39,252 nucleotides of DNA from assembly GCA_028282445.1 (NCBI GenBank), contig JANQHZ010000535.1:1-39252 (forward strand), read 5' to 3'. The notes under the pieces were generated by a model that was not told the origin of the DNA, searched no databases, and was given only the letters and a program-made list of their open reading frames with translations. This DNA comes from Candidatus Binatia bacterium. Its GTDB lineage: Bacteria; Desulfobacterota; Binatia; HRBIN30; CADEER01. The translations under genes and the position numbers were made by a program. Shown in pieces: positions 12,008 through 36,700 of this stretch (position 1 is its first letter; the number at the start of each line of letters is the position of its first letter).

Positions 12008-12091
12008 GGCCTCGTGGTGGAATTGGCAGACACGGCAGACTCAAAATCTGTTGCGGGCAACCGCGTGGGAGTTCAAGTCTCCCCGAGGCCA
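12008..12091 (+). tRNA. tRNA-Leu (anticodon CAA), class II with long variable arm; CCA not encoded
   Basis: Manual cloverleaf. Acceptor GGCCTCG/CGAGGCC; D-arm GTG-GAATTGGCAGA-CAC; anticodon stem GCAGA/TCTGT with loop CTCAAAA; variable arm GCGG-GCAA-CCGC; T-arm GGGAG-TTCAAGT-CTCCC; discriminator A. Confidence 0.85.
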
Positions 12092-12093
12092 CT
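12036..12093 (+). repeat. attL: 58-bp direct repeat (3' part of tRNA-Leu)
   Basis: CAGACTCAAAATCTGTTGCGGGCAACCGCGTGGGAGTTCAAGTCTCCCCGAGGCCACT is identical to 30996-31053. Confidence 0.9.
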
Positions 12094-12192
12094 TAATGAT
12101 TTAAAGGAGTTACGCCAGCACCGAGTGGAGGTCACGACTTCGCAACGGTCGCCGGGGAAGCAATAGGGAAGCAATAGTCGCCAAGACGCATC

Positions 12193-13140
12193 TCATGCGT
12201 TCCCCAGCGCGGCTTCCTGGCAAATTGAGAAGAGCCATTGTGGCAGGTCATCGTACGACCTCAACGTAACCTGAAAAACTCCTCGTTTTTCGAAAAGCCC
12301 CCTCCGGGGATCACTATCGCTGTCGCTGATTCGAACTCCCCAGAACGCATCTTTTCGCTCTGCGGAAGCGTGAGCTTTGTTGGCTGCCGCAAGGAGAGAT
12401 GTCAGGTTCTTGTCGCTCCCAGATAAGCCTAAGAACAGGCAGGTACTTGAGCACATGATGTCCAGGAGCCGCGCGCGCCAAGCGGATGCACTGCTCCCTA
12501 CGACTCGGTCATAGTGCAGTTGAGCAAACACGATCCCCTTCGATGGTGACGCAGCCGGATCCGCCGGGAGGAGACCGTGAGGATGGAGGACCGTTACGTC
12601 TGCTGACCGCTGCCAGCAGGGAAGTTCGCCCACAGACTCTACGCTCGCCCCGTAGTATCGGAGGTACGTCTCAAGCAGATCATCGAAGTTGAAAGACACC
12701 ACACTTGGCACACTGCCCCGCATCGAGGGCATCGTCAGAGCGCCGAGGGACGCAAGCAGCCCGTTCTTGCGAAGGGCATCGAAACTGAGGTCGACCCCCT
12801 CAAAGAGGGCACTACGCACCAGATCCGCCAGGGCCTCGTCTTGGCCTCCGCATCCTCGCATCAATAGCTCCTCGGCCAACTCCTCGGCGTCGAGACTATC
12901 GTCTGCAGGTTTCGGAATACCGGCACTTCTAAAGCATCTATCCACCAGTTCAGCCCACCCAGGCAGATCGTATCCGACGGAAACCCCAGCGCCGAGAAAA
13001 ACAGCCAGCGAACCGCTCCGAAGCTGACCAGCAAGAAAGTTGTTCAGCGTCTTTGCATTCTCAAAGCTGGCTCGGCGATTCATCCGCCCGATCGCTGTAG
13101 ATCGCCGCGGGACCATCTTGCCGTCTGAACGGACTCCCAC
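12193..13140 (-). CDS. SIR2_2-family (SIR2-like) protein, predicted NAD+-consuming effector
   Basis: 315-aa ORF. Motifs LAVFLGAGVSVGYDLPGWAELV, VVSFNFDDLLE (counterpart of TTNYD), VLHPHG (catalytic-His motif) and LFLGLSGSDKNL. GTG start at 13140 with GGGGAG about 10 nt upstream, only 4 nt after the upstream stop. Confidence 0.8.
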   Translation of the reverse strand: MGVRSDGKMVPRRSTAIGRMNRRASFENAKTLNNFLAGQLRSGSLAVFLGAGVSVGYDLPGWAELVDRCFRSAGIPKPADDSLDAEELAEELLMRGCGGQDEALADLVRSALFEGVDLSFDALRKNGLLASLGALTMPSMRGSVPSVVSFNFDDLLETYLRYYGASVESVGELPCWQRSADVTVLHPHGLLPADPAASPSKGIVFAQLHYDRVVGSSASAWRARLLDIMCSSTCLFLGLSGSDKNLTSLLAAANKAHASAERKDAFWGVRISDSDSDPRRGLFEKRGVFQVTLRSYDDLPQWLFSICQEAALGNA

Positions 13141-13144
13141 CTAT

Positions 13145-13786
13145 CTAGTCTCCCCACTTCAAGTAGCCACCGGACGCGAGGAAACTCAGTACGCTGTCCG
13201 TTCGCCGCAGGCTCCTCGCGCCACCATAGTGAAAACCGAGTTCCCCCTTAGAACTTATAGAAACGGCCTCCTGGCGAAGGCGTAAGTCCCGAAGATTAGC
13301 CCGATGGGGCGCAAGATGCGGAAGAATGCTCGAAAACAATTGCGCCTCGCCTAAATCGGCTCCGAACAGCGACATCGATCTAAGCGACTGCCCGAAACCA
13401 TCGACGCGTGCGTAGACACCGCTTAGGGAATAGTGCTGCGGCTGCTTGACCAAGTCTTCAACCAACTGTCGTACATTTACTCGAGGAGTCGACACCTTGT
13501 GACGAATTCCAATGACATCGATCAGCGCAGTGACCAAATCTGCATGCGACGAGACGAGCAAGAAGTGTTGGCCACTGGTCCGCAAAAGGTAGTCGTACTT
13601 AAACTCTCCGCCCTGAGGCTCAGGGCCTTCAACGAGGGGTGATGGATAGCTCAGCGTGAGCAGACACCATCCAGAACGCCCCACATCTCCCCGCACCAAC
13701 TTCTCGTGTCTCCAAACATCTCCACCCACTGGCACTTTCCAGCTCAGCAGATTGCCTGTGGCATTCGTTGGCGCTGCAAAGGTCAC
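13145..13786 (-). CDS. Hypothetical protein (213 aa), middle gene of the SIR2 cassette
   Basis: The ORF track gives 13145-13822. I prefer the GTG at 13784-13786. It overlaps the upstream TGA stop as GTGA and has GGAGG 5 nt upstream. No recognisable motif. Confidence 0.65.
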   Translation of the reverse strand: MTFAAPTNATGNLLSWKVPVGGDVWRHEKLVRGDVGRSGWCLLTLSYPSPLVEGPEPQGGEFKYDYLLRTSGQHFLLVSSHADLVTALIDVIGIRHKVSTPRVNVRQLVEDLVKQPQHYSLSGVYARVDGFGQSLRSMSLFGADLGEAQLFSSILPHLAPHRANLRDLRLRQEAVSISSKGELGFHYGGARSLRRTDSVLSFLASGGYLKWGD

Positions 13787-15672
13787 TCCGCCTCCGAAAA
13801 CGCCAACTGATGCAGGATCCAAACGGACCGCACCAGATGACGGGACTTGTCACCTGCCTGTGAGTCCATGAAGCTCAAAGGGTTAGAGACCCGGTCATCC
13901 GCAAACACATTGCCTGCGACTGCATCCTTGCGCGATCTCGCAACTGTCTCCGATCGCAAGAGCTTCTCGATTCTCGGCGAGTACAAGAAGTGTCGGACGA
14001 CCTGAACTAGCTCGCGGTGCCGGTCAAGCTGATCGAGAAAATGGGACTTGGACTTTCGAAGCTGGGAGCGAGCTTCCCTCACATACTTGTTTTTTGGGTA
14101 CTCCGTCTCCAGGTCCTTCAACAAGCGATCGAAAGTTCGACACACATGCTTTTGACCATCAGCCCTTCGAAGGTGGTTGGAGTAAAGCGCGCACAAGCTC
14201 CGGAGGATGTAATGAGCGATGCGGTCTTGGATGTTCGGTATGACTCCCCAACTGGCCCATATAGACTGAATGTAGCTCTTATCATCCCCGGCGTAGAAGT
14301 AGAGAAAGTCGAAAACATGCGTCATGACCTCGTTGACCTGACTGTGGTGCGCCCGAATCAACTCCCGCAATTTTTCAGCTTCGAGTTCATAACGGTCGGC
14401 GTCGCCGTCTTGATCGCACGAGCGCCATAACGCGAACACCAGAAAGGTCCTCAGATCATCGAATAGCTTCAATCGATCGGCACCAAAGAGATCGAGAACT
14501 TCCTCGATCTGGTTGTCGTCGTCGGGGTGGGGGAGCAGCGTACCCAGTACACCTTCAATCACGCGGTGGCTAATCTCGTGGGTAATTGTCAGCGGAGTCC
14601 AACTCACAGTGTTACAGCTACTGACCAACTCGAGGGGGGCGCTGAGCGAAACTTGCGTGCTGCGAAACCCATCGCGACCGCTGAAGCAAGTAATCAAGGG
14701 CAGAAGATCGTCAAGATCCCGCGGACTCGTCTCCAACTCGCCCTGTCCTGGGTGATCGAATAGGTGGTCTCGGCGCCAGTACGGGTCGTTTCTCGCGAGC
14801 TGAACAAGAGTCGGGTTTGGTCCATCAACCGCTCTAAGCATCTCGAGGCGATCAAAAATGCGAGCTTGGTCAAGCCTACACTCCATGAACTGCCGGACAC
14901 GGACTAGCGCCATTGAAGCCACGCCGATTCCGAGGAGAGAATGCGTCCAGTAATGACATTCCGATTCCAATATCGGACTGGTCCCCGAGTAGGCCTGCGA
15001 CGAGAAGCGCGAAATCGCCGCGTTTGCGGTCACAACCAACCCCTGATCGACGACCGAGTCGGTCTTCTTCAACGCCGCCCTGAAAGTTCGGTCGAACCTG
15101 ACAAAATCCTCACAAAGATCAGGAAAGCTCGGAAACGCGCGCTGGGCTCGACCGACAGCCGTCATCACCAGTGTAAGGTACTCGCGCGACGCAGGCTCAA
15201 GCGCGTCCTGCGTGGTTTCCAACGATTTCCGCAACTGGGCGGGGATCTCCGCCGGGTTTCTGCAGGGAGTAACCTTAGTCTCCACGATGCGCTCGCCGCG
15301 CAGACACCACTCCTCGAAAGGAACACCTAGCGCCCCAGTGAACTCCACAACACGGTCACGGATGGATCTCGAGTCACAGAGAAAGACGAGGTTGTACGCC
15401 CCTAGCGAAACAAAGAACTCTCCCTTCAAGGAGCGCGGCACGGCGCCTGGGAAAACGGGACCGCAGAAGACAATCCAGCGCTTTCTCCGGTCCGACAAGC
15501 TGAGCGCGGACGCACGGTCAATCGAGAAAATGGGGCTGACGCGGCTCGATGACTCCCACTTGGCAAGAACGTCATCGAATCGAGACTCTAAGGAGACTCT
15601 GTACTCAACCTTCCCGGCCTTGAAACACCTTCGGAGATGCAAGAAATGCGTCCCGCCGAGAAGTTTCCGCAT
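13783..15672 (-). CDS. Large hypothetical protein (629 aa) with a single HExxH motif (putative metallopeptidase-like or sensor protein)
   Basis: Long uninterrupted ORF. Contains LTITHEISHRVIEG (HExxH). The C-terminal half looks helical. No P-loop seen. Confidence 0.75.
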   Translation of the reverse strand: MRKLLGGTHFLHLRRCFKAGKVEYRVSLESRFDDVLAKWESSSRVSPIFSIDRASALSLSDRRKRWIVFCGPVFPGAVPRSLKGEFFVSLGAYNLVFLCDSRSIRDRVVEFTGALGVPFEEWCLRGERIVETKVTPCRNPAEIPAQLRKSLETTQDALEPASREYLTLVMTAVGRAQRAFPSFPDLCEDFVRFDRTFRAALKKTDSVVDQGLVVTANAAISRFSSQAYSGTSPILESECHYWTHSLLGIGVASMALVRVRQFMECRLDQARIFDRLEMLRAVDGPNPTLVQLARNDPYWRRDHLFDHPGQGELETSPRDLDDLLPLITCFSGRDGFRSTQVSLSAPLELVSSCNTVSWTPLTITHEISHRVIEGVLGTLLPHPDDDNQIEEVLDLFGADRLKLFDDLRTFLVFALWRSCDQDGDADRYELEAEKLRELIRAHHSQVNEVMTHVFDFLYFYAGDDKSYIQSIWASWGVIPNIQDRIAHYILRSLCALYSNHLRRADGQKHVCRTFDRLLKDLETEYPKNKYVREARSQLRKSKSHFLDQLDRHRELVQVVRHFLYSPRIEKLLRSETVARSRKDAVAGNVFADDRVSNPLSFMDSQAGDKSRHLVRSVWILHQLAFSEAE

Positions 15673-16309: not shown

Positions 16310-16857
16310 CTGGCACTTAGCGGTTCTAGCGGTTCGTCCGGCACATACCTGCGGAATGCCTCCTGCAAGTCGCAGCGGTTCTTAACCACGTACGCTGCCG
16401 CTGGCCCCACGCTGTTTCCGCCGGGATCTCGAGATTCCTGAGCAACCTCAATAAACCTGCGGGACCAAGGATCGCCCACGCGAGTAGTCGCGCCAAGGGG
16501 CCTCTTCTAGCGAGCGCAGGTAGTCCCAAGTGGAGCTTGTCGGCCGCCTGTCGGTTTCCATCTGGTCGAGCATACGCCGGACGTCCCCAAGAAATCGCAG
16601 CGCTGTCGCTCGATTCGCGCGACCTCTAGCAGCGTAGCGCCGCCGCGCGCGCCCTTCGGGGCCACGCCGAGCCCAGCAGCATCCGTGATGGCAGAGAAGC
16701 TACTCCAGTTGTCTGCCGCCCGGTCGTGCAACTCATCCGGAATGTCCGGGTCCGAGTCCTTCAGCGCCTCCACGATGTCTTCAGCCCATCGAGCAAGCTG
16801 CCGACCGAGATCGGCGGATGCTCCCACCACGGATCCGCTCCACACGCTTCTGAACAA
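16310..16857 (-). pseudogene. 3' remnant of a second primase/P-loop (DUF3631-like) gene, multiply frameshifted
   Basis: Three reading frames in turn align with the C-terminus of the intact 784-aa primase. DLGRQLARWAEDIVEALKDSDPDIPDELHDRAADNW aligns with DIRRQLTRFALDHIESLKGADPEVPDSLHDREADNW. DYLRSLEEAPWRDYSRGRSLVP aligns with DHLCSLEESPWGEYARGKPLTP. CDLQEAFRRYVPDEPLEPL aligns with SDLDDAFARYLADDPLDPL. Confidence 0.8.
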
Positions 16858-17127
16858 AGACGTCGCCTCATGCTTACCAAAGCGGATCGGTCGGACAGTG
16901 TGCCCGGAAGTTCACCGGTGCAAGCGATGCACTTCGCGCCCCATGTCGTTCAAACCCGAACAACATGGTTCTCCGAACGCGGTTACTCGCACATGGCCGA
17001 AGTTCAGAACCCCAGGCAGCTCGTTCGATTCGTGGTCGAACGTGTCGGCGCGGTCCGGATGGGCGCCCCCCACGCTCCATTCCATTTCGGCGACACCCCT
17101 ACGAACTTGGACGCGTCGAGTGTCACC

Positions 17128-18321
17128 CTAGTCTGTCTCAACATAGACGTCCGATTCAGTCCCCACTAGCGTCACGACTTGCCAGCCAGCCTTCCGAGCA
17201 TGCGCAGCGTCTAAGTTGCGCGGAGTAATCGCCAACGTCTGAAACGACCTCGCAGGATGGGAGAGGTGCTCTGCATAGCGCTCGAAGTGTGCCAACGGCC
17301 AGTGGGCCATCCCCCCATCCATCAACAGCAGCGTAATCGCACGCTCCGACCAGGCTCTGCAGGCAGCAATTGCAAACTCGCAGACGACCTGAGCCCTCTC
17401 GCTATGGGATAGAACCCGGAACGCCAATCCCGGCCGCGTGTTGGCCACGTCGGCGAGCAGAAGGAAACCTTCCTCGTCTCTGGAGAAACGAACATTCTTC
17501 ACAATGCCTGTACCGAACTCGTCAATGTAGTTCGGCAACTCTAGGACCACTCCCTCATGGAGCCCTAGCTGGGAAGATACAAACTCGAGATCATCGTGGT
17601 TGTTGGGAATCGTGTGCTCAGGCGCCACATACAAGGCTTGTAGGCCGATACTGGGCACCGGCGTAGGAACCCCCTGGTCGCGATATCTGATCGCGCCGCT
17701 CTGGAGGAGCTCGACAGAGGCAAACTTCGGTTGTGGATTGAAGTACTCTAGGCGAACCGTGAAGGGCCATGAGTTCCCGTCCCTGTTCCGCCACCTCCAA
17801 AGTCGTCCGGGTTCAGCAAACGCCGCGAGCCATTCACACAGTGCCGACTTGCCACTCGCACTCCCCCCCTTCAGCAGCGTTAGCTTCCCAAAGGATATCG
17901 AACTGCCTGGGCGTAGAACCGGGCCTCGCTCGACAATCAACCGATGAAGCCATCCACCAGGCAGCTCTCTGCCCTGTTGTTCCAACATCGCCCTAGTCTC
18001 TCGGAGCGATTTGTAGCTGCGCAGTACCGATGCTGGATACTCCTTGCCACTGTTCGCATCGACCACACGTGAGTGAACCGCGCACAGCCAAATTGCGTTC
18101 TGCGGGTCAGCCAGATCCGCTGCCGAGAGGCCCCCGGTTCCGCGCGGCCCCCCTGCCGCAGCACTATAGATGTGCGCAGCAACCCCTGTGTGAATCGCCC
18201 CAGACCCGCTAGTGTCGGGACCAACAGTCGGCCGATCACAGTCCGGGAAACTGCATCGATGCGCGGCCCGTTCGGCAACCAGCCTCTTCGTCGCTGCCGT
18301 AAACTCTACCCTCTCACCCAC
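17128..18321 (-). CDS. HNH endonuclease domain fused to an ABC/SMC-type P-loop ATPase domain
   Basis: 397-aa ORF with a GTG start preceded by GGAGGTGG. N-terminal motifs HRCSFPDC...GVAAHIYSAAAGGPRG...QNAIWLCAVHSRVVD (HNH). Walker A LLKGGSASGKS, ABC-signature-like LSHSERAQV, Walker B-like ITLLLMDGG. Confidence 0.8.
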   Translation of the reverse strand: MGERVEFTAATKRLVAERAAHRCSFPDCDRPTVGPDTSGSGAIHTGVAAHIYSAAAGGPRGTGGLSAADLADPQNAIWLCAVHSRVVDANSGKEYPASVLRSYKSLRETRAMLEQQGRELPGGWLHRLIVERGPVLRPGSSISFGKLTLLKGGSASGKSALCEWLAAFAEPGRLWRWRNRDGNSWPFTVRLEYFNPQPKFASVELLQSGAIRYRDQGVPTPVPSIGLQALYVAPEHTIPNNHDDLEFVSSQLGLHEGVVLELPNYIDEFGTGIVKNVRFSRDEEGFLLLADVANTRPGLAFRVLSHSERAQVVCEFAIAACRAWSERAITLLLMDGGMAHWPLAHFERYAEHLSHPARSFQTLAITPRNLDAAHARKAGWQVVTLVGTESDVYVETD

Positions 18322-18506
18322 AGGCCACCTCCAACCACGATTAACGCCGGCCTACCGTAGCGAACTCGGCCGAGGATGATGGCAGTGAAAGATGAATACC
18401 ACCACACAGGTAGGCAAGCCGTCATCGACACTCCGCTCGACTGATACGACACAGCTGTCGAGATTGGTCGGAACGGCGGTACCATCTGGCAGGTCGAGGA
18501 CAGCAA

Positions 18507-19856
18507 CTACACCAAGCCGAGTCTCGGCCGCATATGCGGCCGCCTGACTGGCAGGCTGATAGGCGGTTGGTCAATGCACTCAGACAGCGCCTTCGGTACG
18601 CCCTTCCGCACCTTGAGTTCTAGTGGGATATTGTCGAAGAGCAGGTCCACCTCCCCGCCAAACCTATCGGGCTTCTTGGAAACACGGCGCGGGAACACGT
18701 CGGTGAGGCGCTCGTACAGGAACGGCAGAAAGAACTGGTCCTCTATCTGACTATAAGCGCGATCGGCGTTCGCCTTGAGCCAGCGAGACGCGGGCTTACC
18801 CAGGAACGCCGGCTCTTCGAGCGTGAAGGTAACCTTGCGGATCAACCAAGCCGCGAGTTCCGCGAAAGAAGCTTCAAGATTTGGGCGGCCAAGAAACACA
18901 TAGCGTTTCTGGAGATCAGCGTGGACCCTATCGTAGATCGAAAGTTGAATCTCACTCAGCTGTTGGCGGACTTCCGCGGAAAGACCTCGGGATGCAGTGT
19001 CGTAAATGTTGTGATGACAGGGGCGTCGAATCAAGTATCGAGTCTCTAGGTCGAAAGGCGATACAGGCGAACTCGATAACCAGAGTTCTTGAATATCGAG
19101 AAGACCGCAAAGCTCGAGATACAATGGCAGCAGTACACGCTCCGCCGGACCGCATGATCCCAACGCGGGCATCGCAGCTCCGTCACTGAACACGGAGATC
19201 GAGTGCCGAAAAGGTATCTCGGCACTCGTAAGCGAGAATTCCTGCTCCCCTGTGTGTGCTTGCCGCGCATCAAGAAACGCTTGCAGAAGATCAAGCAGTT
19301 TACGGTAGTCCACCCTTGGGCTCATGTTGCCCCCGGGTAGTCGCTTCTGAATCTTGTTCACAAAGTCGGAGCGTAGGCTGAGCCGCGTTCTCAGGTGCTG
19401 TTGCAGGAAAGAGCGAAGCTTTCGTGGCGAGAACGTTGCAGCAAATCTTCCCGGCACCGGCTCTTCGAAGCGATCGATTGAGGAGGGCAGGCCGACGCTG
19501 TCCCCATCCCTCAAGAATTCAAGCCGAGTTCGAATTACATCGGTGTAGTACTCAAGGGCTTCGCGGCGAGTGGTCTTTGCTTGAGCACCTGCGGGCAGCG
19601 AGGCGCCCAAGGCATCGACGAACTCCTCGGTCATCCGATCGGAGTAGTCAAAATCCACACGCGCAGCGGCCTCGGCCTCGGCCGGTGTTCCAAATTGCGG
19701 GAACACATGCCCCAGATTGAACTCGACGGTGCGCGGCGGCTCGCCTTTCGGGTCCTCCACACGGGCTAGCAGCAGCCGTGCGAAGAACAGCTCATCCAAG
19801 TCTTCGAAGCGAACCAGACGCTGCCTCTCGAAAACACGGTCCTCGGCGCTGGTCAT
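18507..19856 (-). CDS. Hypothetical protein with C-terminal PD-(D/E)xK nuclease-like core; apparently frameshifted near the 3' end (true end probably 18352)
   Basis: 449-aa ORF. GGEVDLLFDNIPLELKVRK fits the D...ExK motif. The expected QxxxY motif (SQAAAYAAETRLGVVAVLDL...) appears only in the -1 frame, which is open from 18570 to the TAG at 18352-18354. Confidence 0.7.
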   Translation of the reverse strand: MTSAEDRVFERQRLVRFEDLDELFFARLLLARVEDPKGEPPRTVEFNLGHVFPQFGTPAEAEAAARVDFDYSDRMTEEFVDALGASLPAGAQAKTTRREALEYYTDVIRTRLEFLRDGDSVGLPSSIDRFEEPVPGRFAATFSPRKLRSFLQQHLRTRLSLRSDFVNKIQKRLPGGNMSPRVDYRKLLDLLQAFLDARQAHTGEQEFSLTSAEIPFRHSISVFSDGAAMPALGSCGPAERVLLPLYLELCGLLDIQELWLSSSPVSPFDLETRYLIRRPCHHNIYDTASRGLSAEVRQQLSEIQLSIYDRVHADLQKRYVFLGRPNLEASFAELAAWLIRKVTFTLEEPAFLGKPASRWLKANADRAYSQIEDQFFLPFLYERLTDVFPRRVSKKPDRFGGEVDLLFDNIPLELKVRKGVPKALSECIDQPPISLPVRRPHMRPRLGLV

Positions 19857-21013: not shown

Positions 21014-23368
21014 CTACTCGGTCGAATCATCTGCGCTCTGCCGCGGGGACGATAGCGGACCTAGCGGATCTAGCGGATCGTCGGCGAGGTATCGCGCAAA
21101 GGCATCGTCGAGGTCACTACGATCATACCCCCGCAGGTTCTGGCCGACGCCACCGAGTTGTTTCGATCGGGCACCGAATCGCTTCAGCAACTTCGCCAGC
21201 CCCCGGGGCGTTAGTGGCTTGCCGCGCGCGTATTCACCCCACGGCGACTCTTCGAGCGAGCACAGATGGTCGAGAATCTCTTGTGTCGCGGCGCGATCGG
21301 TACCACGGAGGTCAAACATATCCTTGAGATCTCGGAGGAGCTGGATACCAGACCCGTCGTTGGAATCCGCTGCGGTCTTCCGTACGAGTGCAGCCCTTCG
21401 AGCGCGGTTGGCCCATTCGCCTCCGGCTTCATCCGCGATGGCAAACATCGGCCGCCAGTTGTCAGCCTCGCGGTCATGAAGCGAGTCGGGCACCTCGGGA
21501 TCGGCGCCCTTGAGAGACTCGATGTGGTCGAGCGCAAATCGCGTCAATTGACGCCGGATGTCGCTGAGCTCGGCACGAATACTATCCAAGCGGAGACGTT
21601 TGCCCCTCTCCGACGTAAGGCGGCGGCGCAACTCGATTCCGACCGATCGATCAGCCAGCGTGTCCGGGAGAGTTCCGATACAAGCGACACACTTGGCCCC
21701 AAAGGTATAGAAACAATGAAGATCGTGATTCTCCCCTTGCACCCTGATCGCATAAGCATTGGCGCGGACATGGCCGGAATTGAGAATCCCCCGCAGGTCG
21801 TTCGAATCGTGGATAAACGTGTCGACCTCGTCGACGATCAATGTCGGGTTGAAGCGATCCACCGCTCGATACACCGCTGCTGGAGATAGATTTGAGGCCG
21901 ATAGCGGCCGAGCAACGACCGCCCCGATCAGCGTCAAGAGCGTGGTCTTCCCGCACCTCTTCTCCGGGGACGTGATCGCTAGCATCGGCGACACCTCCGC
22001 CGCGTCCACAACGTATGTGAAGACGGTCCACAGGCTAAGCGTTTCGGCGCCGCCTTCGGGAAGGACCACATAGGTCGAGAACACGCGAGCAAGAGAGTCC
22101 AGCAGCTCCGATCCGTCGACCGGCTCGGGCCACGGTTCGGGGAGATCTTCAACGATGCTCGGCGATTCCGGTTCGCCTGCCGGCTCTGACATGGCGGCAT
22201 CGATCAGCTTCGCTGGTGCTTGGACCCCAAGTCCCTTCAGCAGCTTCGCGACGTGATCCCTCAGAACTGCCCGCTTGACGGAGTCCTTCCCCTTCGAGAT
22301 CTCGCCCAGGTGCCTGAGGAACCTCTCGATGGCCGCAGGGTCGGCGTCGCCTTTCGACTCCGGCAGCCCCGCCTGGCGAAGCAACGCATCCAGATCCTCG
22401 GTACTCTCCCACGACGCACCTTCGAAACCAGAATCTACCGACCCAAGATCAGCCGCCACGTAGGGAGTTGCGGAGACCAGTAGATCCCGGAGATCGGCCT
22501 CGCGTACCCCGGTAGGAAGCGGGTCGGCCAGGTCCCACTTCGTCGGGAATCGAGACAGTTCCCGAACAATCCTCGCTGCGGTCGCTCCCGCCTTCTGAGC
22601 CAGGGCTGCAACACTCTCCGCGTATGCCACGCCGTCCTCATCGGCATCGGGCCAGATGACGACATCCCGACCCTCGAGCGAACTCCAGTCCGCCTTGCTC
22701 GCTGCCCGGGCTCCACCGGGAGAGGTCACGACACAGAGATCCGGAAACAGGTTCCGCGCGGCATCGGCGGCCTTCTCTCCCTCGACCACCAGCACGTCGC
22801 GCAAGTGCCCTGCAGCCAGATGGTCTTGGCCGTACAGCGGCTTGGGAAACGGCCAGGATCTCCACCGCCAAGAATAGGACCCCTTCCTCGACCAAAGCGT
22901 AAGGGGCCGAATCGCTTTCTCTCCGTTGGACAGGTCGAAACGGTACACGTATCCGAGCACCCGCCCGCCTGAATCCCGGTACTCGTGAACCTCCGCTGGC
23001 CTACCGAGCTCGGGGTGGGTTTCCGGCCGCGGTGGACCATCGTTCGGAACAGTAAAGATCGGCTTCCACACGGTCTTGGGCGATGCGAGACGCTTCGAAG
23101 TCTGCGGGCGCCCATTCCCCCGCGCGAACGAAGCGAGGCCCAGGACTTCCAAGAGCTCGGTCGGCCCCCCGCGCTTTCCGCAACCATGACAGAGCCAAAC
23201 CCCGCGGCCGCTGTTGCAGCTGAAAGAAGGATTCTCGTCTGCGTGATCCGGGAACGGGCACCTGAGGCTCCATTGGTCACCCGACCTCCGCCCCCCCAAA
23301 GATCTGAGCGCTTCTTCGATCCGCCGCGTAAGCTCGGCGGACAACTCTCCTTCACTAGGTCTTCCCAT
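21014..23368 (-). CDS. Primase / replication protein: CHC2 zinc finger, Toprim, P-loop NTPase (DUF3631-like C-terminus)
   Basis: The ORF track extends to 23650, but that extension overlaps the AlpA gene. I use the ATG at 23366-23368 (MGRPSEGE...). Motifs: CPFPDHADENPSFSC...WLCHGCGKRG (CHC2); VLVVEGEKAADA...VIWPDADEDG (Toprim); SPEKRCGKTT and TLIVDEVD (Walker A and B). Confidence 0.85.
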   Translation of the reverse strand: MGRPSEGELSAELTRRIEEALRSLGGRRSGDQWSLRCPFPDHADENPSFSCNSGRGVWLCHGCGKRGGPTELLEVLGLASFARGNGRPQTSKRLASPKTVWKPIFTVPNDGPPRPETHPELGRPAEVHEYRDSGGRVLGYVYRFDLSNGEKAIRPLTLWSRKGSYSWRWRSWPFPKPLYGQDHLAAGHLRDVLVVEGEKAADAARNLFPDLCVVTSPGGARAASKADWSSLEGRDVVIWPDADEDGVAYAESVAALAQKAGATAARIVRELSRFPTKWDLADPLPTGVREADLRDLLVSATPYVAADLGSVDSGFEGASWESTEDLDALLRQAGLPESKGDADPAAIERFLRHLGEISKGKDSVKRAVLRDHVAKLLKGLGVQAPAKLIDAAMSEPAGEPESPSIVEDLPEPWPEPVDGSELLDSLARVFSTYVVLPEGGAETLSLWTVFTYVVDAAEVSPMLAITSPEKRCGKTTLLTLIGAVVARPLSASNLSPAAVYRAVDRFNPTLIVDEVDTFIHDSNDLRGILNSGHVRANAYAIRVQGENHDLHCFYTFGAKCVACIGTLPDTLADRSVGIELRRRLTSERGKRLRLDSIRAELSDIRRQLTRFALDHIESLKGADPEVPDSLHDREADNWRPMFAIADEAGGEWANRARRAALVRKTAADSNDGSGIQLLRDLKDMFDLRGTDRAATQEILDHLCSLEESPWGEYARGKPLTPRGLAKLLKRFGARSKQLGGVGQNLRGYDRSDLDDAFARYLADDPLDPLGPLSSPRQSADDSTE

Positions 23369-23379
23369 CGCCCGGCCAC

Positions 23380-23580
23380 CTACTCCCCAGCGAAGGGTTC
23401 CGACGTGCTCTTCCGAACCGATTCGGTGAAGAAATCGTCGAGGTCTTCGATGCGATAGCGAACGGCAGACCCGAGCTTCGCAAACAGCGGCCCTCCGCCT
23501 TGCCATCGCCATTTCTGCAGGGTCCGGACCGATAGGCCGAGATACTCGGCCGCCTCTCGCTCCGACAGTATGTCCTTCAT
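23380..23580 (-). CDS. AlpA/excisionase-family helix-turn-helix DNA-binding protein
   Basis: 66-aa ORF. LSEREAAEYLGLSVRTLQKWRWQGGGPLFAKLGSAVRYRIEDLDDF is the typical excisionase/AlpA MerR-like HTH. Its stop lies 11 nt before the primase start. Confidence 0.8.
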   Translation of the reverse strand: MKDILSEREAAEYLGLSVRTLQKWRWQGGGPLFAKLGSAVRYRIEDLDDFFTESVRKSTSEPFAGE

Positions 23581-23646
23581 GTACGCCTCCTTCTGGCGTG
23601 CCCGAGATGTGGTAGGAGCACGCTGACGACGGAGGTCGTAGCGGAG

Positions 23647-24597
23647 TCAATTCACAGTATTCCGGCTTTCTGTGAATTTTTTTGCCCGGGTGATGACGTT
23701 TCTCAGGGTCGAGAACGGAATCGTCTTGTCTGGGCCAACAAACGTCACCGTTCTCGCGTCGCGATCAACCTCGACGGCTGTGATACTCAGCCGTCCGTTG
23801 TACATGTCCCCATCAATCAGATCGGCGCACTCGTCCTCGTTCGCAAGCGTCTTCACTACGTCCACCAACGAGGTTCTTCGAATCCCTCCCGTGGTCCAGT
23901 CGTCACGTTCGGAACAGCTATCAGAATCATACACGAGCGCGCGGCGGACGAGTTCGACATGATCCATGATCCGCCCCCTCTTTTTCTTTCCTGCCACACT
24001 CGAAAGCTGACGACGCGCCCAAACAGCAGCAAGAGCCCGCAACTCCGGGGAACGGCGACGAGCCTGGTAGTCGCGGATCGCAAACCCGGCCGAGAAGACT
24101 TCCCTAATGATCCTTCCGATCTCAGGGATCCTGTCGCCCATTTCCTCGATACGCTCCAGAAGCGCGATCGTCTGGGATGCTGTGGCAGCCAGCTCAGCCT
24201 CGGACCAAGACTCAGCCTTGTCGACAATCGGGTGCACCTCACGAGCCGGGGGGATCTTCTTGCTATCGGGCGCGGGCAGGGGATCCAGCCACTCGTCGTC
24301 GTCCAGCGGGTCGAGGTCATCGCCGACCAAGTCAGCTCCAGGTCGCCCGCTGAGACTCGCTCCGGAGGCGCCGCCAGCGGCTTCGCTCTGCTCGACAAAC
24401 TCCTCACCCAGGGCGTCTGTCGCGCGCTCAGGGTGGTAGCCGAACGCTGGGAAGGGCTCCCCCAACAAATGCGGCCGGAGAACACGCCACGCATCCCGGT
24501 CGCCGCATAATTCAGCGAGCCGATCCTCGGCCCGACTGCGAGTGCGCTCCAGCCAACGCCGGAGCCACTTGACCTGCTCAGTGGGATTATCCGTCAT
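23647..24597 (-). CDS. Hypothetical island protein (316 aa from the ATG at 24597)
   Basis: The ORF track gives 23647-24708. The internal ATG at 24595-24597 (MTDNPTEQVKWL...) avoids a hydrophobic, low-complexity 5' extension. Acidic central linker. No recognisable motif. Confidence 0.6.
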   Translation of the reverse strand: MTDNPTEQVKWLRRWLERTRSRAEDRLAELCGDRDAWRVLRPHLLGEPFPAFGYHPERATDALGEEFVEQSEAAGGASGASLSGRPGADLVGDDLDPLDDDEWLDPLPAPDSKKIPPAREVHPIVDKAESWSEAELAATASQTIALLERIEEMGDRIPEIGRIIREVFSAGFAIRDYQARRRSPELRALAAVWARRQLSSVAGKKKRGRIMDHVELVRRALVYDSDSCSERDDWTTGGIRRTSLVDVVKTLANEDECADLIDGDMYNGRLSITAVEVDRDARTVTFVGPDKTIPFSTLRNVITRAKKFTESRNTVN

Positions 24598-24927
24598 AGC
24601 GACCCCTCCACCATGCAGCGTAGACGAACGGTGGTGAGGAGTCATCGGATGCACAGCGAAGAGTTCGAGAGCAGTCGGTAACACCAAAAGTAGCACCTGC
24701 TTTGTCACAATTGGTTGTTCCGAGAGGGCTATAGGGGGGCAGCCCCACCTTCCGAGAGGGTTACGTGGAAAACCGACACCGCTTTCTCCCGAGCGATGCC
24801 GGACACCTTGCGCGACCGGGCGACCAAGCAGCTTGGACCGGTAAGAGTTCGTAACCCCGGCGCCACTTCTCGGGTCCTCGAACTTCTGCCACGCAGCAAA
24901 TCACGACCAAATCTCATCGCCTCAATC

Positions 24928-26922
24928 ATGCGGGGGGCTGCACTAGGGATCGCGATCGTCCTGATCGCCGCACCGATAGCGACTGCGGATGTAGGGCTGC
25001 AGTTCGAAGGCTGGTTTCGGCTCTTCCAGAGACCACCGCGGGGCGTCTCCGACTTCTCGGTAAGCCGAGATGGCGCCTTGATCGGTACCTCTGGCACCAT
25101 GGTGTCGACCCGTCAGGGGCTCTGTCCCTTCCGACCTGCGCCGGGCAGCCTCACTATCGCCGATCCGCTCAGCGGCGGCGTTTACGTTGGAGGCGACCGC
25201 TCCCCCTTCGGCCTCGAGCTGTTTGCCACCGAAGCGGGCTGGACCGGCCCTTCCCCCTATTTCGAGGATATCGGCCCCTTCCGCGGGCTCGCCTTCTCGC
25301 CTGACGGTATGAATCTGTACGCGGCTCACGCGCTTCGCGATGAGATCGTGACGTTCTCCAGAGAACCGGTTTCAGCTCAGCTCTTCCCAGTCCAAGAACA
25401 GACAAACGGCGCCTGTGGCGTTCTCTCGATGGCGGACGTTGTCGATCTCCTCGTCGCCGGCGACGGCGGCCATCTATACGTTGCCTCCCGCGGATCCGGA
25501 TCGATCGTGATCTTCGAGCGTGATTCCAACATGGGCCACCTGCGCGTCGCGGGAACCGAGCCACTGCCACCAGCCCGCTCGCGCCTGGGAAACTCCATTT
25601 CGGTTGCGTCAGCACCCAACGGCCAGCAGATCTACGTCGCTGACGAGTCGACCTCGGGGATCTACGTTTACGATCGAGACCCAGAGGCGGGGACGCTGCG
25701 ACTCATCCAGTCAGTCATCGATGGCAACGGATTCACGGGGATCGCGGGAATCCGCGCGATCGCAGTGCGTGCCGACGGCGGGGCCGTTTACGCTGCGGGG
25801 ACAACGGATGACGCCGTTGTCGTGTTTCTCAGAGACGCCCAGTCGGGCGAGCTCCGATTCCGCCAAGTCCATCGGAATCTTGTCGATCGGATTCAGACAC
25901 TCAATGGCCCTCGCCGGATTCGGATAAGCAGTACCGGCGAATCTGTCTACGTCGCAGCCGGCGAGTTCATCAACGAGTTCAGCCACGTCGATCTACCGAC
26001 GGCAACTCCTACGATCACCCCCGGGGGGCCGACGCTGACGCCGTCGATGACTCCAACCCGGCTCGCCACCTGGACGCGAACCCGAACCGGAACCGCTACT
26101 CGGACCAAGACTCGAACCAAAACCAGGACGGCCAGCCCAACGTTCGATGTTCGACAGGTGACCTGGACACCGACCGAGACCTATCTGCCTACCCGGACGA
26201 GAACGCCAACCCGAACCCCCACACAGAGCTGCACGCCATCTCACACAGCCACCGGGTCACCACCTACATTCACACCGACCGAGACACCGACAGCGACATC
26301 CACGAGCATTCCAACCGCAACCTCGCCCCCCACACAGACGAATACGCCGACATCGCGAGACACTCAGCCGCCCCCAGCAACACCAACCCCGACCACTACG
26401 ATCGGCCGTGAGGGCTGCGCGGGAGACTGCGATGGAGACGATCGGGTGTCCATCGCAGAGCTGGTCCTGGGCGTACGAATCAATATGGGGTTGGCAGTGA
26501 TTGACGATTGTTCCGCGGCGAACTCAGACCTCCAGCCCGGCGTCTCAATTGCTGACTTGGTAAGGGCGGTCGAATCCAGCTTGGCCGGCTGCAGGACCCA
26601 GTCGCATCCCAGTCCGACTGCCACTCGACTCGCCATCTGCGGTGCAGTCGGCGAAGGGGTCGGTGGTCCGAACGTCGCTCGCGCGCATGGGGTGACCGTG
26701 ACTCTGAATCCTGGCAGAAGGCAGGCCCTCACGAGCGGTATAAACTCCCTGTTTTGCTTCGCCGACGTCGAACCGGGCCTTTACACCCTCTCCGCAACCC
26801 GCAACGGGAGCAGCTGCAATCCCGCCGGATGCTGGGAAACGGAGACCCTTGAGATCCTCGACATGTCGATCACGGACGTTTTCATCCAACGCTTTGCGCT
26901 GACAAGAGGCACCAGGCCCTAG
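24928..26922 (+). CDS. Secreted beta-propeller protein (lactonase-type blades) with PT-rich linker, dockerin/EF-hand-like module and C-terminal CarboxypepD_reg-like domain
   Basis: ATG at 24928 gives the signal peptide MRGAALGIAIVLIAAPIATA. Repeated blades LYAAHALRDEIVTFSRE, LYVASRGSGSIVIFERD, IYVADESTSGIYVYDRD and VYAAGTTDDAVVVFLRD. TPT linker, then GDCDGDDRVSIAELVLGV. Confidence 0.8.
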   Translation: MRGAALGIAIVLIAAPIATADVGLQFEGWFRLFQRPPRGVSDFSVSRDGALIGTSGTMVSTRQGLCPFRPAPGSLTIADPLSGGVYVGGDRSPFGLELFATEAGWTGPSPYFEDIGPFRGLAFSPDGMNLYAAHALRDEIVTFSREPVSAQLFPVQEQTNGACGVLSMADVVDLLVAGDGGHLYVASRGSGSIVIFERDSNMGHLRVAGTEPLPPARSRLGNSISVASAPNGQQIYVADESTSGIYVYDRDPEAGTLRLIQSVIDGNGFTGIAGIRAIAVRADGGAVYAAGTTDDAVVVFLRDAQSGELRFRQVHRNLVDRIQTLNGPRRIRISSTGESVYVAAGEFINEFSHVDLPTATPTITPGGPTLTPSMTPTRLATWTRTRTGTATRTKTRTKTRTASPTFDVRQVTWTPTETYLPTRTRTPTRTPTQSCTPSHTATGSPPTFTPTETPTATSTSIPTATSPPTQTNTPTSRDTQPPPATPTPTTTIGREGCAGDCDGDDRVSIAELVLGVRINMGLAVIDDCSAANSDLQPGVSIADLVRAVESSLAGCRTQSHPSPTATRLAICGAVGEGVGGPNVARAHGVTVTLNPGRRQALTSGINSLFCFADVEPGLYTLSATRNGSSCNPAGCWETETLEILDMSITDVFIQRFALTRGTRP

Positions 26923-27037
26923 GCGGCTAGCGCTACCCCACATCGCAACCACGCACGCGGCCCACGACCCCGGGAAGGGCGGGCCGCTAACCGTTCGGAC
27001 AGGCAGCTGACCAACACACTTCGGCGGGATCAAGACG

Positions 27038-28453
27038 CTACGGGCAGCCCAGTAGGGAGTTCCGGACCGCTCGAATCAACTCCGCGATCGTGACGACTCG
27101 GTCTCCGTCGTCGTCACCCAGGCAGGGCTCCGGCGGCGCCACGGTTGTCCCAACTACCGTAGCTGTGTGCGTCGGAACCGCTGTAGCAGTTGGCTCAGTC
27201 GGCTTCACACTTGGAGCAAGCGACGAAGTTGGCGTCTGGGTAGCGGTTTGAGTGCTCGTCGGGAGTATTGTCGGCGGCGATGCCTCGGGAACGCTTGGCG
27301 TCACTGTTGGTTCTGGCGCAGGCGGGCACTCCTGAACCGAGGCGACCGCAGCTGCTCCGGCGGGTCGAAAGGGCTCAGGAATCACCAACGGGGGTCGTAC
27401 TTCGCTTTTCTCGACAACATCAAAGACGGAGAAACCCGCGACCAAGTAGCGCCCGTCGGGCGTAAAGGACAAGCCACGCATCTCGTCCAGATCTAGCTCG
27501 TCGACGATCTCGTGCGTCGCCGTATCGATCACTTCCCCAGTGCTCACGTAAAGAAGTTCATTGTTGGGAGTCAAAGCGAAATCGAGAATTTGGCCTGAAA
27601 GGACGCTGCCTATCGGGATGGCGTCGACAATTTCACTAGTGACCAAGTCGAGCACCCACACGGATCGCTGCCCCCCTGGGCTTTCAATCCCGATGAGGAA
27701 GGCTTTCGATCCGTCATCCGCGATGAGGATTCCGTCAGCGTTTAAGGACAACCTCATCGGGCCAGAACGCCAGAGTGAAATTCCGCCGAGGACTGCACAT
27801 CTGAGACAGTCCGGATCCAATGCGATGGCTTCCGCATCGATGATCTTCAGCTCAGTGTCGCACGAGATGTAGACAGTTGATCCGTCAGGCGAAATAGCCA
27901 GTGCCTTGGGACCACAGTTCAGGTCGCTCCGCCTCCCGTAGTTGATGTCTCCCAGGACGGATAGCGACTCCAAATCGACGACGGTTACTGTGCTTCCCGG
28001 CGTCGGCGGGGACGTGCACTGGGGAGCATCACCACAACCGTTGAAAACGTACGCATGCCCATGGGAGCTGAACGTTATCCCCTTCGGGAATGCGCCGAGC
28101 GGTAGCGTCTTGGTGACAACGTTCGTGTTGGCATCGATGACCGACAAGGATCCGAACCGACACTGATCGAAACCGGAGCATTGCCCATCCCCGCACTGGT
28201 TCACGGAGAAGATCTGCTGGGTCGCAGAGTGGATCGCGACCGCAACCGGCCCAGCACCGACTTCTACCTGCTCAACGTTGGGGACATGGCCATCTCTATC
28301 GAGGTCTTCGCCGTCAAACACAAAGACGGAGCCATCGCACTCAGGCAGGGGAAATTCGCCCGCAACATACACACAAGATCCCGCTTCGACAGCTGCAGAG
28401 TAAATCGCGGCGACTACGAACTGAACTAGTGCACCACCAAGCAATGGTCTCAT
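27038..28453 (-). CDS. Secreted YVTN-type beta-propeller protein with PT-rich linker and C-terminal dockerin/EF-hand-like module
   Basis: ATG at 28451-28453 gives the signal-like MRPLLGGALVQFVVAAIYSAAV. YVTN-like repeats (VYISCDTELKIIDAEA, LYVSTGEVIDTATHEIVDEL). C-terminal GDDDGDRVVTIAELIRAV. The ORF-track 5' extension is Arg-rich and improbable. Confidence 0.75.
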   Translation of the reverse strand: MRPLLGGALVQFVVAAIYSAAVEAGSCVYVAGEFPLPECDGSVFVFDGEDLDRDGHVPNVEQVEVGAGPVAVAIHSATQQIFSVNQCGDGQCSGFDQCRFGSLSVIDANTNVVTKTLPLGAFPKGITFSSHGHAYVFNGCGDAPQCTSPPTPGSTVTVVDLESLSVLGDINYGRRSDLNCGPKALAISPDGSTVYISCDTELKIIDAEAIALDPDCLRCAVLGGISLWRSGPMRLSLNADGILIADDGSKAFLIGIESPGGQRSVWVLDLVTSEIVDAIPIGSVLSGQILDFALTPNNELLYVSTGEVIDTATHEIVDELDLDEMRGLSFTPDGRYLVAGFSVFDVVEKSEVRPPLVIPEPFRPAGAAAVASVQECPPAPEPTVTPSVPEASPPTILPTSTQTATQTPTSSLAPSVKPTEPTATAVPTHTATVVGTTVAPPEPCLGDDDGDRVVTIAELIRAVRNSLLGCP

Positions 28454-28529
28454 GAAATCCGGCTTTACAGCGTCCCAGAAACAACCGCAAAGCCAAGAAA
28501 GCTGTTCCGAAAGAGCCTGTCGAGGCGAG

Positions 28530-30941: not shown

Positions 30942-30995
30942 ACTCTTTGTCGCACCGCAGCGAATTACAGAGAAGCTCGGAGCAAGGGGGCACAA

Positions 30996-31053
30996 CAGAC
31001 TCAAAATCTGTTGCGGGCAACCGCGTGGGAGTTCAAGTCTCCCCGAGGCCACT
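30996..31053 (+). repeat. attR: 58-bp direct repeat (duplicated tRNA-Leu 3' segment)
   Basis: Identical to 12036-12093. It lacks the tRNA 5' half, so it is not a functional tRNA. Confidence 0.9.
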
Positions 31054-31521
31054 CATATTTTTCAGGTAATTACGCTCCACCAGAACTCGCTGCCCGAGCG
31101 CCACTTCGGCAGCGGGTGCGAACCTCCGGGGTCGACCATTCTAGGTGCCTGATTGCGTTGAATTTGTCGCCAGTTTCGGACCCGATTGGGGGCTTAGAAC
31201 CTACATTCCGCACATTCCGAAGAGAGTAAATGCGGGATTTGGTTTGGCGGGCTATTGAATGTCAGCGCCGAATTGGTCGGGTGGGATTTCGAGAAGTTTC
31301 AGGACGGCGCGTTGTGCGTCGGACTCTAAGGACGGAATCAGGGCGTAAGAAATCGACGAACTCCGTCAAGCTCGAAGGGTTGCGGTGGTCCGACTCGTTC
31401 GCCCAGCGTTTATCACCGGCCCGCGCCTTCTCTCCACGATACCACGAGAACCTCCCAACTCTGCTGCCGTGCACGAAACTCGTTGGGTCGAAGGGGCTTC
31501 GAAACGGCGCGGCGAATATCC

Positions 31522-36418: not shown

Positions 36419-36551
36419 GGGTGCGGCGCATCGGTTGTCTCGACTCTTGACCTAAAGCACCCGCAAGACGCGAGCGCACTCGCGAGTGGTCGGTCGCGGA
36501 TCAACGTAGCTCTGATGGCGCGGCGCGCGCCGCGAGTGACTGAGCCTGTCA

Positions 36552-36600
36552 GGCGAACCTCCGGGGTCGGCGAACCTCCGGGGCGCGAACCTCCGGGGTC
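36552..36600. repeat. Three tandem copies of a 16-17-bp unit GCGAACCTCCGGGGTCG
   Basis: GGCGAACCTCCGGGGTC GGCGAACCTCCGGGGC GCGAACCTCCGGGGTC, followed by two copies of CCCCCCATGGCCC. A single copy of the same 17-mer lies at 31118-31134. Confidence 0.7.
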
Positions 36601-36700
36601 GCCCATTGGGAGACCCCCCATGGCCCGCCCCCCCATGGCCCTTGAACGGATGCCGCTAGTCGAGCCCCGGAACCAGCGACGCCCCATTTGAGCGGGTTTC

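Follow-up and report, generated by a model that had tools for sequence, protein, structure and literature searches.

A candidate single-gene defence protein, an HNH-ABC ATPase fusion, beside an unrelated candidate nuclease gene in a tRNA-Leu island of a Candidatus Binatia bacterium

The locus considered here raises the question of whether two neighbouring genes form one defence system or are separate cargo of the same mobile element. It lies in a 39,252-nucleotide (nt) stretch of DNA from Candidatus Binatia bacterium (GenBank assembly GCA_028282445.1, contig JANQHZ010000535.1, positions 1 to 39,252), which is referred to below as the window. Gene B encodes a protein of 397 amino acids (aa) in which an HNH nuclease domain precedes an ATP-binding cassette (ABC) ATPase, and gene A, immediately upstream, encodes a candidate nuclease of the PD-(D/E)xK type. 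An initial annotation, made from the sequence alone, had joined the two into a module built of Septu-like parts. Both are real genes and not chance open reading frames (ORFs), because each has many homologues at very low E. The features of the pair are as follows.

17128..18321, (-) strand: gene B, the HNH-ABC ATPase fusion protein of 397 aa (ORF list; GTG start at 18321, stop included)
17977..18321, (-) strand: HNH (His-Me finger) nuclease domain of gene B, aa 1-115, Cap5/SPARHA effector clade (PADLOC, PDB profile matches, conservation)
17131..17952, (-) strand: compact ABC ATPase head of gene B without coiled coil, aa 124-397 (Foldseek, Rad50 profile, motif frequencies)
18325..18332, (-) strand: Shine-Dalgarno-like GGAGGTGG, 3 nt 5' of the gene B GTG (sequence reading)
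18352..19856, (-) strand: gene A, reconstructed at ~500 aa (the called ORF, 18507-19856, gives a truncated product of 449 aa; frameshift within 18561-18570)
18352..18755, (-) strand: predicted RecB/Cas4-like PD-(D/E)xK core of gene A, reconstructed aa ~368-500 (invariant columns, pattern in the AlphaFold2 (AF2) model)

The adjacency on one strand and the strong Shine-Dalgarno sequence before the downstream gene, both pointed out in the initial annotation, are present as described, with GGAGGTGG at 18325-18332.

Genes A and B in other genomes

Gene A and gene B are not a module, and they are adjacent in this window alone. Loci of gene B numbered 55, with 51 drawn from a scan of GTDB species genomes and four from metagenome contigs; the query for the genome scan consisted of 11 sequences, the 42-sequence alignment being too diverse. 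No gene A lay within 6-10 kb of gene B at any of the 55 loci, of which 53 were screened by tblastn with the reconstructed gene A and two (L063 and L064) by their gene tables, which hold no protein of the size of gene A. In the other direction, gene B was found in 0 of 6 distinct contexts of gene A. As gene A is absent from the gene B loci and gene B from the gene A contexts, the two-gene module of the initial annotation is refuted.

Gene B has no other conserved neighbour either, as all-against-all clustering of the flanking ORFs at 54 loci yielded none at lengths of at least 70 aa and none at lengths of at least 30 aa, the sole clusters being antisense shadows of gene B itself. A scan for promoters and terminators around the pair in the window gave a site count not above that of shuffled sequence. 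The lack of co-occurrence of genes A and B also carries a lesson for the locus, in that adjacency within one island was no evidence of a system.

The six contexts of gene A likewise have no neighbour in common, and are varied in what surrounds the gene.

L001: gene A homologue adjoining rimP-nusA
L003-5: methyltransferase, kinase-ORC protein and MqsRA
L006: AAA_15 protein and SLFN_AlbA_2
L008-9: NA37 proteins
L065: integrative and conjugative element (ICE) with HEPN_AbiU2, the gene A homologue standing between a NikA-like gene and a gene for a 1023-aa TIR-TPR protein
L066 (9644-12654): gene pair of DUF87 (HerA-like) and SIR2_2 beside the gene A homologue

Domains and relatives of gene B

The division of the 397-aa polypeptide into an N-terminal HNH domain and a compact C-terminal ABC/SMC-like ATPase, as first proposed in the initial annotation, was borne out by PADLOC, PDB profile comparison and Foldseek. 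In the HNH domain, the catalytic residues are H50, N75 and H83, and the zinc ligands are C23, C28 and C80. PADLOC matched aa 4-111 only, with models of CBASS HNH effectors and SAVED_HNH (E 4e-18 to 6.5e-19) and, over the same residues, with PDC-M68A and the N-terminus of SduA. When a profile of the gene B family was compared with the PDB, it matched 9om4 at E 1e-20 and the Cap5 structures 7rwk and 8ysq at 3e-14 and ~1e-14, respectively. Entry 9om4, deposited under the title 'HNH endonuclease', is cited in the SPARHA paper (PMC12738770), and its length of 435 aa suggests that it is the SPARHA HNH effector. In an alignment of 160 full-length members of the gene B family, H50 occurs in 155/155 sequences, N75 in 156/156 and H83 in 149/156, and the zinc cysteines are conserved. 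By its sequence, the N-terminus of gene B thus classes as a predicted beta-beta-alpha-metal HNH nuclease of the Cap5-SPARHA effector clade. The HNH domains of SPARHA and Cap5 are closely related, dimerise through the N-terminal helix and are active solely as tetramers or filaments, and those of Septu, retrons and Zorya II are of diverged, monomeric types (PMC12738770).

The C-terminal part carries the Walker A motif GGSASGKS (152-159), the signature LSHSE (304-308), the Walker B motif LLLMD (331-335) and FQT (360-362). An AF2 model, made with 42 homologues in the alignment, had a predicted local distance difference test score (pLDDT) of 89 and a predicted template modelling score (pTM) of 0.85. 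Foldseek with aa 124-397 returned SMC and Rad50 heads at E ~1e-11 and probability 1.0, with RecN, RecF and then retron-Ec78 PtuA (E 3e-8) as lower matches. The family profile matched Rad50 at E 8.6e-7, the signature, Walker B and FQT regions all being aligned (LSsSE with LSGGE, tlLilD with cIILD, and FQTivvip with PQMIIITH). The HNH and P-loop calls are thereby both supported by profile searches, through 9om4 and Rad50. With the head fold, Walker A, the signature and the Walker B Asp all present, gene B meets the description of an ABC protein, and the model depicts its C-terminus as a Rad50/SMC-like head devoid of a coiled coil.

Across the same 160 members, the Walker A Gly is found in 148/150 and the Lys in 145/150, the signature L-S-x-S/G-E is retained, the Walker B position is Asp in 133 members and Glu in 14, and the Gln of FQT is invariant. 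Most members have G, S, A or a gap directly after the Walker B Asp (D335), with Glu outside the six commonest states, and in the 42-sequence alignment Glu at this position stays below 50%. The lack of a Glu after the Walker B Asp, which had been noted for gene B itself, is real and family-wide. At the H-loop position, most members have Pro, and His is present in just 10 of ~150. The 42-sequence alignment, in addition, has no Gln among its invariant or near-invariant columns between Walker A and the signature. Judged from the 160 aligned members, the family as a whole thus lacks two residues on which normal ATP hydrolysis depends, the catalytic Glu and the H-loop His. Judged by these residues, proteins of the family should bind nucleotide and could form an ATP sandwich without the usual machinery of hydrolysis. 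Because both residues are missing throughout the family, the ABC domain is read as a probable ATP-binding switch and not as a motor.

Homology searches with gene B gave ~75 full-length homologues, with E as low as 1e-91. With the ABC part as the sole query, HMMER retrieved 240 proteins at E <= 1e-3 from 1.84 billion representatives, and the match begins at residue 122-130 in most of the 240, which is the HNH-first architecture; both domains are present in 175 of the collected relatives. In the GTDB scan, relatives were spread over Acidobacteriota, Verrucomicrobiota, Planctomycetota, Myxococcota (including Sorangium) and Gammaproteobacteria, and further relatives belong to Thermodesulfobacteriota, Nitrospinota and many Actinomycetota (Streptomyces, Micromonospora, Actinoplanes). 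Plasmid records with full-length relatives are rare (2-3), every one of them annotated as 'hypothetical protein'. Cultured strains with a relative include Priestia megaterium (plasmid NZ_CP065336.1, 130221-131213), Kitasatospora purpeofusca (AP028456.1, 263823-264905) and Sorangium cellulosum So ce26 (L034). Pfam and NCBIfam had no match to the proteins of gene A and gene B, and PHROGs matches to gene B were confined to the HNH part. The initial annotation recognised no named system in the pair, and indeed PADLOC v2, Pfam and NCBIfam name neither protein.

The phage genomes searched contained no full-length relative of gene B, and the HNH domain alone recurs in them. Examples are 'lysogenic conversion' genes of P2-EC46 (AJ512680.1, 2563-2913) and of a Yersinia phage (OM140653.1, 919-1263), in both of which another C-terminal part is fused to the HNH domain. 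Within the window but outside the island, positions 36425-36637 on the (+) strand have a weak tblastn similarity to aa 61-135 of gene B (32% over 75 aa, E 5e-4), which may be due to chance or may be the remnant of an HNH-like domain.

In some relatives, the same ABC module carries a different N-terminus. TIR_2 takes this position in L057 (6548-7831) and P0157 (Pfam, E 2.7e-17 and 6.8e-16), DUF4062 in P0243 (Pfam, E 4.6e-21), and a nucleoside 2-deoxyribosyltransferase (NDT)-like domain in L059 (6449-7846) and P0202, the last by a weak Pfam match of 2e-4 that falls below the cut-off. Such an exchange of HNH for TIR-type domains, while the ATPase stays constant, is familiar from immune sensor-effector proteins. 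The TIR, DUF4062 and NDT-like variants point to the ABC module as a reusable chassis.

The surroundings of these relatives are varied. At L011, a Gabija-like pair and a type I restriction-modification system lie just downstream. Among the metagenome contigs, one relative has an MmeI-type enzyme, a DEAD helicase and T5orf172 near it on an ICE, another a PIN/HicAB/ParE toxin-antitoxin cluster, and another HamA, Nmad2/3 and IS66. A census of neighbours, which covered 126 ORFs from 45 gene B loci and was made without a background control, revealed no dominant family, the maximum being 4 ORFs. Its Pfam leaders are AAA_21/AAA_15/SMC_N ATPases, ResIII and DEAD helicases, reverse transcriptases (RVT_1), transposases, relaxases, PIN_8 and GmrSD_N, and its PADLOC leaders are LmuB, mad3, PDC-S06/S28, retron and DRT reverse transcriptases, AriA and GajA. 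Separately, a 253-aa ORF of L011 (9152-9913), directly upstream of the gene B homologue, clusters with the gene B family and may be a partial gene B paralogue.

Gene A and the island

The homologues of gene A are contiguous and 500-514 aa in length. The copy in the window departs from the conserved alignment after '...ELKVRKGVPKALSECIDQP', and the conserved tail 'YQPASQAAAYAAETRLGVVAVLDLP...FHCHHPRPSSLR' (~70 aa, including QAAAYA) runs in another frame to a TAG at 18354-18352; the out-of-frame tail, 18355-18564, has 59% identity to the C-terminus of the homologue P0122. The frameshift lies within 'ccaaccgcc' at 18561-18570 and, judged by the spacing in homologues, may have arisen by insertion of 2 nt or deletion of 1 nt. 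Once corrected, gene A aligns end to end with its family and ends ~30 nt from gene B. The reconstructed protein has ~500 aa; the called copy of 449 aa is a product of truncation by the frameshift. The truncated product is on record in both the NCBI and Logan sources, and this double record lends weak support to a frameshift that is in the data and was not made by one assembler. The contiguity of all homologues led us to reject programmed frameshifting.

In the 15 sequences of the gene A family, E372, D404, E413-L-K415 and Q438xxxY442 are invariant, and they fall on an alpha-beta-beta-beta-alpha-beta segment of the AF2 model (pLDDT 86.5). The C-terminal D..ExK..QxxxY core ascribed to the upstream protein thus stands, in the reconstructed frame. 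The motifs and the order of secondary structure in the model would fit a RecB/Cas4-like nuclease core, the E..D..ExK..QxxxY order and the alpha/beta core of the model being the points of resemblance to RecB, Cas4 and McrC-type nucleases. No significant match in sequence or fold was found for gene A, however, and the best partial Foldseek matches, to McrC, ThaI and the DdmD nuclease domain, are weak (E 0.07-0.9). The frameshift splits the predicted core between ExK and QxxxY, so that, if it is a real shift, the copy in the window would probably have no activity.

The gene A family, of ~500 aa and unannotated, comprises just 24 clusters in 5.8 billion even by profile query. Foldseek with the gene A model gave no PDB match at E <= 0.001 and nothing significant in BFVD, the profile gave nothing against the PDB at E <= 10, Pfam on all 15 members gave noise only, and PADLOC and PHROGs had no match. 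For the N-terminal ~365 aa, no relative was detectable in sequence or fold searches. Gene A is an orphan, independently mobile candidate nuclease gene that is unrelated to gene B, and its interest lies in the great rarity of the family and in an N-terminal fold that is predicted with confidence but has no match.

Both genes sit in an integrated island, delimited by the following features.

12008..12092, (+) strand: tRNA-Leu(CAA), integration site and left island end (ARAGORN)
30991..31075, (+) strand: direct repeat of the 3' part of tRNA-Leu, right island end, adjoining the integrase gene 29578-30816
21014..23650, (-) strand: island primase with CHC2 zinc finger, Toprim and DUF3631 (Pfam), upstream of the helix-turn-helix (HTH) gene, the 132-aa ORF and genes A and B
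16318..17055, (-) strand: C-terminal remnant of a second primase (DUF3631 region), immediately 3' of gene B

The two ends share an 85-nt direct repeat (12031-12115 and 30991-31075, 87% identity) that contains the 3' part of tRNA-Leu. Its exact 24-nt core occurs at these two sites only, and in 0 of 100 shuffles; no third attachment site copy was found between the two primase genes. The gene 29578-30816 encodes a tyrosine integrase (Pfam), and G+C content is 0.54-0.60 between the repeats versus 0.63-0.69 in the left flank. The tRNA-Leu repeats, the integrase and the lower G+C content together establish that the repeats enclose an integrated island of ~19 kb.

On the (-) strand, the order is integrase ... 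353-aa ORF, primase, HTH_3 regulator, 132-aa ORF, gene A, gene B, the 132-aa ORF having, on our reading of its sequence, hydrophobic and seemingly membrane-like stretches. Because the genes follow this order in the tRNA-Leu island, the initial annotation was right to place both in a cargo position downstream of the primase. Relatives of the two genes are found among defence genes and mobile elements. The primase remnant (tblastn, 28% identity to aa 607-863 of the intact primase, E 2e-20; Pfam DUF3631 on ORF 16507-16857) points to a related element that may have accreted or decayed within the island.

Other cargo of the island is of separate interest. The tRNA-proximal operon at 12193-15672 (-) consists of closely spaced or overlapping genes for a 629-aa protein (13783-15672), a 225-aa protein (13145-13822) and a SIR2_2/ThsA-like protein (12193-13140). 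The 629-aa protein has no match in Pfam, NCBIfam, PADLOC or PHROGs, and the 225-aa protein none in Pfam, PADLOC or PHROGs, and the operon is a possible SIR2-based defence system that has not been described. Further unusual cargo lies at 24715-28654, between the genes for primase and integrase: one gene encodes a lactonase-type beta-propeller protein of 735 aa (+) and has short direct repeats at 26079-26338, and another encodes a 538-aa protein with a faint WD40 match.

Readings of gene B and comparison with known systems

Gene B probably encodes a solo, defence-type HNH-ABC nuclease that is independent of gene A, a reading held here with moderate confidence; far less confidence attaches to the specific steps by which it might be gated. 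As such, it is an unnamed single-gene defence candidate and a variant of the ATPase-plus-nuclease theme, a class already crowded with candidates. The data show the identities of the domains, the motifs kept and lost, the solo status, the exchange of effectors on one ABC module and the surroundings of defence islands and mobile elements. For its action, we infer ATP-dependent dimerisation, the absence of hydrolysis, an oligomerisation-gated nuclease, a trigger and an immune role. The Rad50/SMC-type head, with Walker A, the signature and the Walker B Asp intact, would bind ATP, and two heads may engage head-to-head, like ABC heads generally, with slow or nil turnover. The ABC domain would then serve as a nucleotide-dependent dimerisation switch or sensor instead of a motor. 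The HNH active site would form only once HNH dimers pair into tetramers or filaments, and a trigger could shift the assembly state of the heads and bring the HNH domains together as a dimer of dimers. Candidate triggers are invader DNA or DNA ends (compare the Rad50-like LmuB), an invader protein (compare AriA) or a change, such as a fall, in ATP level. The outcome would be weakly specific cleavage of double-stranded DNA, leading to abortive infection.

Several points weigh against this account. The loss of Glu and His could make the ABC domain a purely structural scaffold, or could mean non-canonical catalysis. The coupling of head engagement to HNH assembly is conjecture, and a defence role is a prediction for any member of the family. 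No defence-system model in PADLOC spans the whole protein, and the defence genes around its relatives were counted without a background. Finally, genes A and B, ~30 nt apart on one strand, are probably co-transcribed, and a local functional link between them may be compatible with the comparative data.

It is this spacing, together with the strong Shine-Dalgarno sequence before gene B, that would speak for a dedicated two-gene system of a PD-(D/E)xK protein with an HNH-ATPase, comparable to PD-T4-4/WonAB or Septu; defence systems that combine an ABC ATPase and a PD-(D/E)xK nuclease are known, as in WonAB and PD-T4-4 (PMC12137116). Yet gene A and gene B never occur together at the 55 and six loci surveyed, gene A in the window is frameshifted, and neither protein matches a PD-T4-4 or Septu model in PADLOC, which leaves this explanation highly improbable. 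Decay is somewhat easier to entertain, though still quite unlikely: the frameshift of gene A and the primase remnant directly downstream of gene B could mark the region as cargo in decay that no longer serves a function in this genome, but gene B itself is intact and full length, has a strong Shine-Dalgarno sequence and keeps all residues conserved in its family.

A role in the upkeep of mobile elements would suit a single gene for a potentially lethal nuclease that is frequent on islands, ICEs and plasmids, beside transposases, relaxases and toxin-antitoxin clusters. Gene B would on that account be an addiction or stabilisation toxin, an ATP-restrained nuclease lethal to cells from which the element is lost. 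However, the clustering turned up no conserved neighbour of antitoxin type, whether large or small, and defence genes are numerous among the neighbours. The HNH clade, like the TIR, DUF4062 and NDT-like domains that replace it in relatives, is moreover typical of immune effectors, so that an addiction toxin is unlikely. HNH domains are common in homing endonucleases, and the closest structure and sequence matches of the ABC part are the heads of Rad50, SMC, RecN and RecF. These two facts would favour a homing endonuclease or a housekeeping-type or element-encoded enzyme of DNA repair or processing, in which a minimal Rad50-like head is joined to a nuclease. Such an enzyme is improbable in view of an occurrence that is sparse and scattered over phyla (240 representatives in 1.84 billion), the variable, non-syntenic contexts, the lack of a coiled coil and of an Mre11-like partner, the family-wide loss of the ATPase catalytic residues, and an HNH of an immune-effector clade that TIR replaces in relatives.

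For the solo nuclease, a bolder extension is tentatively put forward, at somewhat less than even confidence. Gene B would represent an undescribed family of one-protein immune modules, in which a hydrolysis-deficient Rad50-like head without a coiled coil is the portable sensor and chassis for interchangeable effectors (Cap5-type HNH, TIR, DUF4062 or NDT-like), in effect a 'minimal Lamassu' within one polypeptide. Gene A, independently of this, would be another solo defence nuclease that is as yet undescribed and has a novel N-terminal fold. If this holds for gene B, ATP binding without turnover suffices to gate an oligomerisation-activated nuclease, and the family-wide loss of Glu and the H-loop His provides a natural test of nucleotide binding alone as an immune switch. 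Should gene B protect cells from phages or plasmids, it would be a compact, single-gene addition of 400 aa to the ATPase-gated nucleases, and a simple model of an ABC head that controls a Cap5-type HNH without a second messenger, guide or partner proteins.

Gene B is not a Septu, Gabija/OLD, Lamassu or CBASS protein. A search for a published description of an HNH-ABC fusion defence protein found none, an earlier in-silico mention in work on ABC-ATPase classification being possible. With Septu, gene B shares the combination of an ABC-type ATPase with an HNH nuclease, and its head bears a remote structural resemblance to PtuA of retron Ec78 (E 3e-8). In Septu, however, PtuA, an AAA_15/21-type ATPase, and PtuB, the HNH protein, are encoded by separate genes of an operon, whereas in gene B the two parts are fused with the HNH first; the Septu HNH is of the diverged monomeric clade (PMC12738770), while that of gene B is of the Cap5/SPARHA clade; and the gene B ATPase is closer to Rad50/SMC than to PtuA. 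The PADLOC models of PtuA and PtuB had no match to gene B at E <= 0.1. Being fused, of another HNH clade, unmatched by PtuA or PtuB and without a partner, gene B is not Septu, and the 'Septu-like parts' of the initial annotation are a loose label that is not supported. For PD-T4-4/WonAB, PADLOC gave no match to gene A and no PD-T4-4 model among the matches of gene B, and that system is a conserved operon of an OLD-type ABC ATPase and a REase-fold protein, whereas the pair of genes A and B is not conserved.

OLD nucleases, GajA of Gabija and fused PARIS variants resemble gene B in joining an ABC ATPase to a nuclease in one polypeptide. In Gabija, GajA is accompanied by GajB, a UvrD-like helicase. 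Their nuclease is a C-terminal Toprim, in contrast to the N-terminal HNH of gene B, which has no OLD-type insert, and AriA aligns with gene B at Walker A only (E 0.03). Since Pfam and PADLOC detected no Toprim domain and no match to the GajA model in gene B, it is not Gabija/OLD, and the separate Gabija-like pair beside the gene B homologue in L011 confirms that the gene B family and Gabija are distinct entities.

The nearest parallels lie with CBASS, SPARHA and Lamassu. Cap5 of CBASS and the SPARHA HNH-APAZ effectors have an HNH of the same clade as gene B, with the N-terminal helix, the zinc cysteines and H..N..H, and they have the same order of HNH followed by a regulatory domain. The regulatory domain is SAVED or APAZ in these effectors and an ABC head in gene B, and gene B is solo while Cap5 and SPARHA work with a CD-NTase or Argonaute partner. 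No SAVED domain was found in gene B, where PADLOC and PDB matches end at ~aa 115, nor a cyclase among the window ORFs scanned, and for these reasons it is not CBASS. Lamassu/ABC-3C, for which HNH domains of the Cap5/SPARHA clade, TIR and SIR2 are reported as effectors (PMC12738770, PMC10586767), couples a Rad50/SMC-like ABC head to swappable effectors, as does the gene B family. These systems consist of two or three genes, for LmuB with its long coiled coil, for a separate LmuA effector with a docking domain at its C-terminus and usually for LmuC, and gene B encodes one polypeptide, the head of which (274 aa) has no coiled coil in the model; unlike Lamassu, gene B has no LmuC and no effector CTD, and its catalytic Glu and H-loop His are missing. 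The LmuB model of PADLOC did not match gene B, and without a coiled coil, LmuA or LmuC, gene B is not Lamassu. By analogy, gene B would work most like a collapsed Lamassu or a Cap5 hybrid.

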